From the IMG/VR virus record IMGVR_UViG_3300032782_000361: a stretch of DNA of 53,925 bases. One strand, 5' to 3'. Origin of the DNA: a virus. The notes below the pieces were generated by a model. It was not told the origin of the DNA. It worked only from the letters and a program-made list of their open reading frames with translations, and ran no database searches. Below, piece after piece: positions 19,163 through 26,160 of this stretch (position 1 is the stretch's first letter; every line of letters begins with the position of its first letter). The translations under genes were made by a program, and so were the position numbers.

Positions 19163-20023
19163 ATGTTTCACTTTCCGAGGCGGCTAGTCGTGAGCGGTAA
19201 TTGGTGGGATCCCTTCGATGTGCTGATTTCCGACGAAGAGGTCGACGAAGACATGGCGTCATCTCGCTCCAAAAAATCTGCTGACACCAAATCGGTCGAG
19301 ACCGCTCAAAGCTTGGAGCGCGCGAAGCTGAGCGCGCAAATCAGAGACGAACTTCAGGCTGAACGCGCAGCTGCGTGCCCGACACCCAGCCAGCTTGCCT
19401 GCGCTCAGACCCATCTCGAAGAGCTGAAAACGGGCGTGCGGCTTCTGTCGTGGGTTGCAGCGAGGAGTGCTCAAACCTCCGCCGCAATCCTAGCGCGAGC
19501 ACAAAAGATCCGCGCAATAGAGATCGGCGCAGTGGTAGGAGCGGTCGCGGCGACTGCCGTAGGAAGCCTGCTGGCGCTGATAATGCTGGTGTGGTTCGGG
19601 CTTTTCGTCGGGATCCTAGCCGCGTGCCTTGAAACGTACTTGCGTTTGAATCCTCCGAAATTTTACAAAGCACGCGCGGACGCTTCGAAAGAACAGGTAG
19701 GAAGCTGCGAAGCTCTGCGGACTAGGATTCAGCTGGCGATCTCGAGACTGCCGCTGTCCGAGACACGTATGCAGCTGGATAGGGCGGTATGGGACCTGTC
19801 AGAGACGAAGTGCTGCTTGGATCGCGCGGTTAGCCCCAGCCCCGAAGAGCTGGCCGCGGCCCGTCGTGCCCTCGAAGAGGAGCTGGCTGTCGAGGTCACT
19901 GTGGACGAGCTGACACGAACGCGGGTCGCCCCCCTTTCGTCGTTCACACAGGAGGAGCGCGACGAGGCTTGGGAAGCAATGGCTGCAGATCGAGCAGACG
20001 AGGCTCGGCGGCGAAGTCCCTAG
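19163..20023 (+). CDS. membrane protein (2 TM helices) with coiled-coil flanks
   Basis: Central hydrophobic stretch IEIGAVVGAVAATAVGSLLALIMLVWFGLFVGILAACL; ends convergently against the giant minus-strand gene. Confidence 0.45.
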   Translation: MFHFPRRLVVSGNWWDPFDVLISDEEVDEDMASSRSKKSADTKSVETAQSLERAKLSAQIRDELQAERAAACPTPSQLACAQTHLEELKTGVRLLSWVAARSAQTSAAILARAQKIRAIEIGAVVGAVAATAVGSLLALIMLVWFGLFVGILAACLETYLRLNPPKFYKARADASKEQVGSCEALRTRIQLAISRLPLSETRMQLDRAVWDLSETKCCLDRAVSPSPEELAAARRALEEELAVEVTVDELTRTRVAPLSSFTQEERDEAWEAMAADRADEARRRSP

Positions 20024-26000: not shown

Positions 26001-26160
26001 AAAGCGTCTTGCTCGCGTCGTCGAGACGAATGCCCCACGGCAGGCCTGCGACGGGGAGCGTCTTCGGGGCAAGTTCCCACGCGGGCTTCGTCTCGGGCAA
26101 ACCGCCGTGCTCGCGATTGCCGTTGTCGAAGACGCGCCGCTGAACAGAGAACCACGACAT
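20020..26160 (-). CDS. giant repeat protein (2046 aa): 2x ConA/LamG-like N-terminal domains plus about 35 tandem ~35-aa Pro/Arg/Gln-rich repeats
   Basis: 6.1-kb uninterrupted ORF. N-terminal 500 aa show the laminin-G/ConA-lectin-like pattern twice (GHSFCVLF...GNVEYHYFDG...YHVAVVVHD...LYVDQLLV). Repeats have consensus PxPERTLPLADxxWPDRVVRPxFRAEQQPYTT. Confidence 0.7.
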   Translation of the reverse strand: MSWFSVQRRVFDNGNREHGGLPETKPAWELAPKTLPVAGLPWGIRLDDASKTLSGSNVTLWSDADGREAAFGQELAGVAQFFDPRVGITITTGHVSTWTDREGGSSLGTNPLTRPTLNAAAFGGSADAVDTTSGGFMTLASRRTFTTGHSFCVLFATVSAGGGPAAYAGDSIYTLIGDTTGSVVNSIGLDDSGNVEYHYFDGASWQLLTTSGSGLGPYNDGNYHVAVVVHDQATGFLGLYVDQLLVADATQTYSASSWGWNVLATGFAADQFNGQIGPILTFDRALNYSEVRGYGSWIQLNYINGTSVDPCFNAPTTGSTTPSGKGSVAFSANQSLYLTGTPLEISSPFLSVQTIGELTRDSAGFCIFSVVNPGAFGSDNPGNENTVGSSFYSDDGGYVGLVATDLSSGSLVGYTNDNTGEADASFTVSTSTWYLVTHNATGANLYVLNNVSAKTSPIGAADTHAGPWTTASSYGFHFGVSGAERGYTGFLSGSIAAFYLYPSSPSAARMRDIQRYLFESFLLPAQWWPSFPDPPSKAPLYALRQNRHASRMQTWAGPIAPIVVAALTPVDLFRYPDTIARPRLATGNHRPTDRNNVTPERTQPMADMEWPDWVRRPSLRPENQLATPSEPPQPEKKIAVSDTVFPPTVLRPKFATAEQQAALSVMPKPERVAPLADQNWPDRIVRPVLSTAQQLASPNEIQAPERTLPLADQEWPDRVPRPMFRAEQQLATTSEPPEPERTLSLADNVRPDRVPRPIFGSGLQHSFPFAAPAPEQTTGLADVSVPARVVRPVFAAPLQLATTNVPPAPERTLVATDVSRPDRIVRPFVPVAQQPAYLVFPSQPERTLPDFDTVHPDIVLRPKFLTDQQVASPTPHPYPIPLDEPGIGYGWYPDFVSRPKFHADQQRSVDFVVLVTVTPSSDLFRFPDLLLRTVYHPSRQQVAAPDAMQPEETSQLADSRWPDRVPRPAFESRQQVASLSTPPQPEQTEEIAVSVYPDAVNRPRVAAALQFAVTRDIQQPERTNQLADMEWPDRILRPMFRAEQQQWTTGISPEPEQPLPPTFVSWPDRVPRPVLAAAQQPFWTSSPKPEQPQAQALYQYPEAVRRPTLRADKQPFTTDVPSYPIPLPQPGAGYAFYPDSVFRPVFRTERQQTTAENIQPEQTIELPSAVWPDRIALRPAFRAENQPYFAFAPQPEATVEYPSVSWPDRVFRPIVRATDQPFRAEQNVQPEEQLPIPDSRWADRVPRPSFRGEQQPYTTNVPAKPEQPTQMSAMSWPDRIVLRPTFRAENQPYFAFAPQPEAPIAYPSVVWPDRVLRPLVRASDQPFTSEQNIQPEEQIQIPDSRWADRVVRPVFRSGQQPYTTSIPPQPEQPTEISAVSWPDRVLRPTTPTAQQPFFTFAPSPLPQAQSGAGYTLFPDRVPRPSLPTANQMAPAALYPLPETTKVPLAWNPVYEDRIVRPDFKTAQQPYFTFWPVPIPVAALTQLQADWASFPTRIVRPSFGVSEQLFATNIPTAPERTLQLADVEGPDRVVRPMFRAEQQPWTTGIPAQPERAVPATDGYYPEVVRRSKVRTDALPFASAAPIAPERTSTAFDFVYPDIVRRPMFRAASQLDSVRPPPEPERSSPLADSLQPERVRRPLYLVALQQVAPILPQQPESPTPEAFVYYPERVLRPKLATADQQDTTNLSPHPEGPLPEPSVSAPVAVRRPFFLGPHQLWTSRLPEAPEQPLALSSVESPAAVRRPALHASLHQAAAISQNPELPVSEPSVVWPDQILRPRFLPPQQAWSTELPPAPEQTSSLADSLFPPTVLGSRFLPYNQQAFAQPPLIIDRLDSPPLYPDSVRRPALLASAQAAATRPDQLPTFIPTFFEAEYVDRVLRPMVDPRYQRDVAPYPLPIGSYITLSVRFFGQTFAEFELTQGHQLPPPLVPPFNGPVLSPSAQLGYRYLPVPLALQRTVPPHSPMFRTQGEPTQVIETELANRGIIGEIIHLESGDIVYRVPARELWKLEQDKAGFFVRSGKTKYRFVSYDPTVGQTILDFWKPLL

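Follow-up and report, generated by a model that had tools for sequence, protein, structure and literature searches.

Introduction

Phage fibres set host range, and new protein architectures can be found in their shafts. Shafts described so far are built as triple beta-helices, beta-spirals or coiled coils, and the fibritin of T4 holds a position near the gp13 neck gene. The neck fibre gp82-gp81-gp80 of the Anabaena myophage A-1(L), a bead chain of ~100 nm, shows that the genes of a long, flexible accessory fibre need not lie with the rest of the structural genes and that such a fibre may bear a carbohydrate-binding module at its distal end (PMC10966104). Here we describe the gene of a 2046-residue protein, hereafter the giant, in a stretch of viral DNA of 53,925 nucleotides (IMG/VR record IMGVR_UViG_3300032782_000361), which as a whole we call the window. 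An earlier inspection of its letters, the original prediction, had proposed that the gene encodes lectin-like domains followed by a long repeat array. On balance we lean, by a little, towards reading the giant as a very long modular fibre on the virion of an uncultured contractile-tailed phage. This reading rests on gene context and domain logic; we infer that the giant is on the virion and that it binds glycans, and likewise its oligomeric state and the structure of its shaft.

We hypothesize the following division of labour along the polypeptide. The first ~50-70 residues would dock the giant on conserved partners, probably the products of a four-gene cassette. Two ConA/LamG-type beta-sandwich domains would come next and probably bind host surface glycans reversibly, since domains of this type typically bind carbohydrates. 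The 38 proline-rich units of 35 residues would make up an extended shaft, long and thin, with copy number setting its length, and the unique C-terminus of 152 residues would be the distal tip.

Results

The gene

The giant gene is intact in the open reading frame (ORF) list: it occupies window positions 20020-26160 on the minus strand, starts with ATG and encodes 2046 amino acids followed by a stop codon. It is the final gene of a minus-strand block and overlaps by 4 bp a convergent plus-strand ORF (19163-20023, 286 aa). Position, strand, length and the place at the end of the block are as the original prediction had them. The GC content at third codon positions (GC3) is 0.73, the same as in the adjacent genes when GC is read frame by frame. 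Translation of the giant is probably coupled to that of the gene 5′ of it, because the stop of the latter lies three bases before the giant's ATG. The identical protein is recorded from two contigs, the longest of which is k141_2299559 of ENA ERZ27256589 (101,461 bp); the window is the reverse complement of its positions 1-53925.

The overlap between the giant and the 286-aa ORF falls at their stop codons and leaves no intergenic space for a terminator. Terminator-like hairpins on the minus strand occur only within the coding sequence of the giant.

Domains flanking the array

The N-terminal segment resembles two repeat-less proteins of related contigs, P0137 and P0113, with E-values of 2e-16 and 3e-13 over aa 3-56 and 41-44% identity (coordinates of all features are given in Table 1). 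AlphaFold2 (AF2) models this segment with low to moderate confidence and short strands.

Two tandem LamG-like modules follow, as had been proposed, and they differ in how they come to be recognised. For module 1, aa ~70-300 of the giant match >70 proteins (E down to 1e-13 in searches of the entire library). A large share of these hit Pfam Laminin_G_3 (PF13385) above threshold: P0052 scores 66.6 bits, where the cut-off is 27.6 bits, and P0018 has five PF13385 copies. The giant's own sequence did not reach the gathering threshold of PF13385. From a 44-row alignment, AF2 builds an all-beta sandwich with a predicted local distance difference test score (pLDDT) >90 at aa 80-300. Foldseek, at probability 1.00, places this model with the Pan3 tailspike, the HCN domains of tetanus and botulinum neurotoxins (TeNT/BoNT), the lectin domain of trans-sialidase and phage ConA-like proteins. 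The best solved structural match is a phage tailspike, that of cyanopodophage Pan3 (PDB 9vyh), and the viral matches are virion ConA-like proteins, including an S-PM2 virion structural protein. Module 1 is thus strongly backed by homologues, model and structural search.

Module 2 owes its assignment to profile-profile comparison. With hhalign, a profile of module 2 and four relatives aligned to the module-1 family over 151 columns (probability 95.3%, E 2.1e-8), and a weak internal BLAST match falls at the LamG core motif. Homologues of module 2 include P0113 and a 247-aa protein of the related contig L010. AF2 obtained no fold for it (pLDDT about 30-40). A second, diverged LamG-like domain is supported by these comparisons.

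At the other end, the C-terminus has no homologue among family members, in the PDB or in Pfam, so that its description as unique stands; its length is 152 aa, and the ~250 aa first given to it include the last degenerate units. Sequence searches of the PDB with the N- and C-terminal regions of the giant returned nothing meaningful.

The repeat array

Between the flanking domains, the units are spaced nearly always by exactly 35 aa, in register, with the consensus x-P-x-P-E-[RQ]-T-x-x-L-A-D-x-x-[WYF]-P-D-R-[VI]-x-R-P-x-[FLV]-x-x-x-x-Q-x-x-x-T-x-x. The unit alignment shows that the consensus first proposed, PxPERTLPLADxxWPDRVVRPxFRAEQQPYTT, was essentially right. About 35 repeats at 20800-24300 had been counted; the array is real, and both its count and its limits have to be extended (38 units, Table 1). 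Eleven positions of the unit are well conserved (P4, E5, [WYF]15, P16, D17, R18, [VI]19, R21, P22, [FLV]24 and Q29), and the pattern of each unit has three positions that are acidic, three that are basic and one that is aromatic, besides several prolines. Pairwise amino-acid identity of units averages 32%, against 8.2% (sd 0.2%) in shuffled controls. The repeat region is 17% proline with near-balanced charge; Gly-X-Y triplet periodicity was not found in the unit alignment, and glycine is outside the eight commonest residues of the region.

At the DNA level the units are degenerate and not identical, as had been noted: nucleotide identity among them has a mean of 45% and a maximum of 73%, and Tandem Repeats Finder detected no DNA tandem array in the gene. 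Because of these two results, assembly collapse and recent slippage are excluded as the origin of the array. Its most similar units form two copies of a three-unit super-repeat, which share 63-74% amino-acid identity at a three-unit lag, with nonsynonymous divergence (dN) of 0.21 and synonymous divergence (dS) of 1.42. In the most similar unit pairs dN/dS is 0.12-0.21 and synonymous sites are saturated (dS 1.3-1.5). Since this holds even in the closest pairs, the duplications are old and their sequence is constrained by purifying selection.

These results also bear on whether the gene exists at all. GC-rich DNA yields many long spurious ORFs, and several ORFs of 150-420 aa overlap the giant in other frames, so a chance long ORF or a misassembled or collapsed repeat deserves consideration. 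The giant, however, has the right frame-specific GC3, a Shine-Dalgarno sequence and coupling to the 5′ gene; its units are too different in DNA for an assembler at k=141 to collapse them, and the substitution ratios between units are those of a protein under selection. The protein has 138 homologues from independent samples and was assembled on two contigs. We give an artefact practically no credence and regard it as excluded, including the assembly collapse that the original prediction had named as a possible refutation.

A repeat family across metagenomes

An exhaustive HMMER search (phmmer with aa 1-1200 of the giant, E <= 1e-3) returned the 138 proteins related to that region. A hidden Markov model (HMM) of the unit finds 1-34 detected units in ~62 other cluster representatives (clustered at 50% identity), and the repeat-bearing representatives were found only in metagenomes. 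The modal unit spacing in these relatives is again 35 residues (218 of ~410 spacings). Copy number across the family is 1-38 detected units, and 3-38 among members with a clear array; distant members show, by direct reading, unit subtypes in the same order. On both sides the array is bordered by mosaic sequence, with N-flanks that form several unrelated clusters and C-flanks that are mostly singletons, which is typical of phage fibre and receptor-binding genes. One member carries a PHROG tail-protein domain (1.6e-34).

The unit has no match in Pfam-A 2025, PHROGs v4 or the PDB. Six repeat-bearing relatives have no Pfam domain, and matches of 48 relatives to PHROGs are limited to single- or two-member flank domains, with none in the repeat. 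No source gives a name for any of the 10 repeat-bearing representatives checked, and our literature searches found no description of this repeat. GenBank phages gave no DNA or protein match to the giant, nor to window 26000-46000. The 35-aa unit is therefore an undescribed family, though not one peculiar to the giant; that the repeat had not been recognised is borne out by the empty libraries, and the giant is not its sole carrier. This is a well-populated family with a strict period, purifying selection and no structural precedent, and it merits a family definition.

The search method mattered. A word-indexed search of 5.8 billion proteins, run with the whole giant, with its N-terminal 560 aa and with the family profile, returned the giant itself or nothing; with the family profile, not even the query protein came back. 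As a single query in IMG/VR the giant found no relative. Because the word-indexed search missed a family of which exhaustive HMMER gave 138 relatives, the orphan status of repeat proteins is unreliable without an exhaustive search.

Some members depart from the common plan. Two (L018 11541-14018 and L050 6381-9092) have a 31-residue period in place of 35. In the closest relative of the giant, P0002, the array is broken by an insert of ~180 aa (aa 888-1066; L002 about 12660-13200) that is homologous to aa 157-328 of the repeat-less protein P0137 (E 4e-9). Judging from this homology, globular domains can sit embedded in the repeat array.

Upstream cassette and the slot of the giant

Directly 5′ of the giant lies a cassette of four genes, two of whose products, the 273- and 287-aa proteins, are Thr/Gly-rich paralogues with 53% identity. 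The only annotated relative of this pair is found in three copies in Virus Rctr197k (KX853510), from a methane-oxidising enrichment culture. The cassette is 38-58% identical to a 180-289-174/150-281 cassette in the related contigs L010 and L011, and it is also orthologous in L012. The gene in the giant's slot there encodes P0137 (529 aa) or P0113 (571 aa), with only the first ~50-75 residues in common with the giant. In the related contigs the cassette lies a few genes 5′ of a T4 gp13-like neck gene and of tail-sheath genes (sheath 5.8e-49). A fixed slot with a kept N-terminus and a swapped remainder is the classical signature of a virion-attached fibre. The N-terminus of the giant likely has its partners in the 273- and 287-aa proteins.

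Just 5′ of the cassette, L010 (1763-7186, 1807 aa) and L011 (484-7263, 2259 aa) have a second giant gene without the 35-aa repeat. The related contigs also have two adjacent tail-sheath paralogues of ~1000 aa (in L010, 16451-19564 and 19632-21590).

The trio marker and the hypervariable slot

Farther 5′ in the window is a trio of small genes. The relatives P0002-P0005 always come after such a trio, whose 150-aa member is 68-79% identical to that of the window (L002, L004, L006 and L007), and they stand at the end of same-strand structural blocks. At L002, L004 and L007 a GH25 lysin is found 0-5 genes 3′ of the relative; at L006, the fourth locus, none was seen. In L007 there is also a baseplate wedge gene (phrog_6, 1e-11) 5′ of the relative and a small BppU_N/tail-fibre-like gene directly 3′ of it.

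Searching with the 150-aa marker found 74 IMG/VR contigs and 12 contigs of metagenome-assembled genomes (MAGs). The slot 1-3 kb 3′ of the marker holds a hypervariable large ORF, with a median of 649 aa over 66 slot ORFs. Slot proteins at these related loci contain little Lys and Glu and are rich either in Pro or in Gly/Thr/Ser, one of them with 27% Gly. The repeat is present in 7 of the 66 slot ORFs and in four adjacent ORFs, against none in shuffled controls. Because MAG taxonomy of the marker contigs is inconsistent (Actinomycetota, Gammaproteobacteria, Elusimicrobiota, Acidobacteria, Planctomycetes and others), it indicates no reliable host. PDB searches with cassette and marker profiles returned nothing meaningful.

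A BLAST likeness between the giant and a 104-aa ORF at 31905-32219 is unsupported by the repeat HMM and is probably compositional.

Table 1. Position of the giant's segments and of associated features in the window.
Feature	Position	Strand	Remarks
N-terminal ~70 aa, putative virion-attachment (adaptor) segment	25951-26160	-	sole part in common with P0137 and P0113
Module 1, ConA-like/LamG jelly-roll beta-sandwich, aa ~75-305	25246-25938	-	homologues, AF2, Foldseek
Module 2, diverged LamG-like, aa ~310-560 (core aa ~363-527)	24481-25233	-	profile-profile comparison
Array of 38 Pro-rich ~35-aa units, aa 561-1894	20479-24480	-	anchored on x-P-D-R-V-x-R-P motif
Two copies of 105-aa (3-unit) super-repeat, units 18-20 and 21-23	22063-22692	-	array's most similar units
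Unique C-terminal 152 aa, putative distal tip domain	20023-20478	-	role from position only
Ribosome-binding site GGAGGA	26168-26173	-	seven bases 5′ of the giant's ATG; read off the sequence
Four-gene cassette directly 5′ of the giant	26164-28894	-	273, 146, 287, 196 aa
Cassette 273-aa gene	26164-26985	-	
Cassette 146-aa gene	26989-27429	-	
Cassette 287-aa gene	27429-28292	-	
Cassette 196-aa gene	28304-28894	-	
Conserved trio, found 5′ of repeat proteins in other phages	29238-30863	-	150, 101, 137 aa
Trio 150-aa marker gene	30411-30863	-	
Trio 101-aa gene	29689-29994	-	
Trio 137-aa gene	29238-29651	-	
134-aa PF23140 gene (Podophage GP4 fiber I protein gp80)	31501-31905	+	2.8e-31

Discussion

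A virion fibre, a tape measure or a non-virion protein

The order of genes around the marker, with proteins of 150, ~135 and ~95 aa followed by a large one, recalls a tail tube, its chaperones and a tape measure, and copy number, hence protein length, varies in the family. One could therefore propose that the 150-aa gene encodes the tail tube, the ~135- and ~95-aa genes the chaperones, and that repeat number sets tail length. Tape measures are largely alpha-helical, whereas the repeats of the giant are Pro-rich and have no helix beyond turns of three residues, and ~500 aa of folded LamG beta-sandwich are unfit for the lumen of a tube. The composition of the slot proteins is fibre-like. In the relatives, the wedge gene lies 5′ and lysin or small fibre-like genes lie 3′, with no hub or baseplate genes 3′; the only annotated relative has the marker right after the capsid gene and a separate 817-aa candidate tape measure further on. 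In the window itself, the four genes of the cassette lie between the trio and the giant. On composition, predicted structure, LamG domains, gene context and marker position we reject the tape-measure reading, to which we would assign a very low likelihood.

A second alternative is that the giant is made in infection and is not part of the virion, being released at lysis or exposed on the cell as a matrix or glycan adhesin or an envelope-spanning protein. Surface proteins of cells also contain LamG domains and repeats rich in proline, a Por secretion tail or TIG domains occur in some homologues of module 1, and in the window the giant abuts non-structural genes, including the Major-Vault-Protein-like and ATPase-like ones. 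No signal peptide or transmembrane segment was found in the giant, however, and its coupling to a cassette with orthologues next to neck and sheath genes is tight. Its relatives stand in structural blocks ahead of lysis genes, and one of them is fused to the PHROG tail-protein domain. We consider a non-virion role improbable.

Several observations weigh against the fibre. Library annotation identified no sheath, tube, baseplate or portal gene within the window, and the 3′ neighbours of the giant there are convergent non-structural genes and not neck genes or a lysin. The cassette proteins have no match in Pfam, PHROGs or the PDB, and both cassette and trio are without recognisable function. 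The giant itself matches no Pfam family (Laminin_G is absent even at E <= 1), and thus no tail-fibre family, and in PHROGs it has a marginal match in module 1 only, with no significant tail-fibre family. Finally, the global confidence of the AF2 monomer model of the repeats is low (predicted template modelling score, pTM, of 0.17), and an ordered shaft is something that we infer.

It is orthology to the L010 and L011 contigs, with their neck and sheath genes, together with the wedge gene of L007, that places the giant in a structural module, and not the content of the window. The structural-looking operon of the original prediction accordingly finds no backing in library matches within the window and gains it through the better-resolved contigs. 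Its long tail fibre or host-adhesion protein is the best-supported reading, through cassette orthology, the context of the relatives and the PHROG tail-protein relative; the fibre could belong to the tail, the neck or the head.

Rod or tether

Structure prediction, the check proposed for the repeats, gave an extended chain of low confidence. From six units and a 42-row in-register family alignment, AF2 built a model with a mean pLDDT of 64, with no strands and with one helical turn of three residues per unit, just before the conserved Gln; the model has no fold match in the PDB. Because the modelled chain is extended and the PDB match is lacking, the prediction excludes a solenoid, a propeller and a tetratricopeptide- or pentatricopeptide-repeat-like (TPR/PPR-like) fold. 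It leaves two possibilities: the shaft is ordered and depends on oligomerisation, or the repeats are a flexible tether of polyproline-II (PPII) kind.

If the giant were a virion fibre with a flexible, largely unstructured PPII tether in place of a rigid oligomeric rod, its repeats could act as an entropic "fishing line" that enlarges the capture radius of the terminal domain, like the titin PEVK spring in principle. The strandless extended chain with its poor global score, the proline content and the absence of a PDB fold match all fit such a tether. Fibres known to be trimeric also typically come out of AF2, when modelled as monomers, as extended chains with low confidence, which we count against the tether. 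So do we count the low dN/dS at saturated synonymous sites, the 35-residue period kept over a diverged family, the 11 well-conserved positions per unit with paired acidic and basic residues and one aromatic, and the same order of unit subtypes in distant members. Together, this constraint exceeds what a spacer needs, and we hold the tether to be rather unlikely.

The per-unit conservation pattern under purifying selection thus suggests an ordered, probably oligomeric rod over a random coil. We propose tentatively, as something possible more than probable, that the 35-residue unit is an undescribed fibrous architecture. In uncultured phages of one clade it would build an ordered rod, probably of several chains and distinct from collagen, coiled coil and triple beta-helix alike, and this rod would serve as a shaft tuned by copy number, with 3-38 units and a length of possibly 0.1-0.4 micrometres. 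If the units do form an ordered rod, they would represent a fibrous fold of a new type, with copy number as a simple ruler of fibre length.

Other genes in the window

Library annotation of the window is sparse: a uracil-DNA glycosylase (UDG), NUDIX, a metallophosphoesterase, a GH5 cellulase, HNH endonucleases, 15 tRNAs, and S12-like and Major-Vault-Protein-like genes. The PF23140 gene has homologues in 44 phage records, where they are variously annotated as minor tail, head or virion protein. Its Pfam Gp80 family is unrelated to the gp80 of A-1(L) (PMC10966104).

A homologue of the Major Vault Protein (MVP) of eukaryotes is unusual on a phage contig. It has 858 aa (14860-17436, plus strand), matches MVP_shoulder (3.7e-28) and Vault_3 (1.3e-7), and aligns to aa 467-784 of rat MVP (E 2e-18). 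The 488-aa protein 3′ of it (17563-19029, plus strand) has a weak GHKL-ATPase match. A 134-aa homologue of ribosomal protein S12/S23 (39876-40280, minus strand; Pfam 9.9e-35) has the canonical PKKPNSA and GHNLQEHS-like motifs, and the gene of the 602-aa GH5 cellulase (40498-42306, plus strand; Pfam 1.1e-50) lies on the strand opposite to its neighbours. The 15 tRNAs form an array on the plus strand (1234-9964); one of them, with anticodon TCA (9888-9964), is called tRNA-SeC by ARAGORN and could be an opal suppressor. A 178-aa gene (12763-13299, minus strand) has S-AdoMet lyase (PF23780) and DUF3293 matches and possibly encodes an anti-restriction enzyme that degrades S-adenosylmethionine (SAM); near it are a cREC_REC receiver-like gene (11554-11967) and HNH endonuclease genes.

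Comparison with known systems

Among phage virion proteins with ConA-like or Laminin_G_3 domains, such as the Pan3 tailspike and the S-PM2 protein, the fold is that of module 1 and the homology is transitive. In the giant, only about one quarter of the sequence belongs to LamG-type domains.

The related-contig cassette, a few genes 5′ of the gp13-like gene, is positioned like fibritin (wac) of T4. We found no homology of the giant to fibritin or to the A-1(L) neck fibre, and the constructions differ: fibritin forms a coiled coil, many small trimers are strung together in the A-1(L) fibre, and the giant has 38 tandem units in one polypeptide. By analogy, collagen-like phage segments, titin PEVK and TonB-type Pro-rich rods share with the giant a high proline content, a predicted extended form and a tandem build whose length follows from copy number. 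The giant differs from collagen-like segments in having no Gly-X-Y, and from Pro-rich spacers, to which it has no sequence relationship, in its longer units (35 aa) with ~11 conserved positions and purifying selection.

The nearest likeness in general plan is to the long and side fibres gp34-gp37 of T4, gpH of P2 and pb1 of T5. Like them, the giant comes at the end of a structural block, with lysis genes nearby in its relatives; it combines a short conserved N-terminus with a divergent remainder, has flanks that are mosaic across relatives, and has a long repetitive middle of variable length. Unlike them, it has no sequence match to any tail-fibre family, its Pro-rich shaft (17% proline) keeps strictly to a period of 35 residues, with no beta structure in the prediction, and its lectin-type domains lie close to the N-terminus, not at the tip. 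Taken together, as a modular phage fibre the giant would be of a known kind, while its shaft module is new and structurally unexplained.

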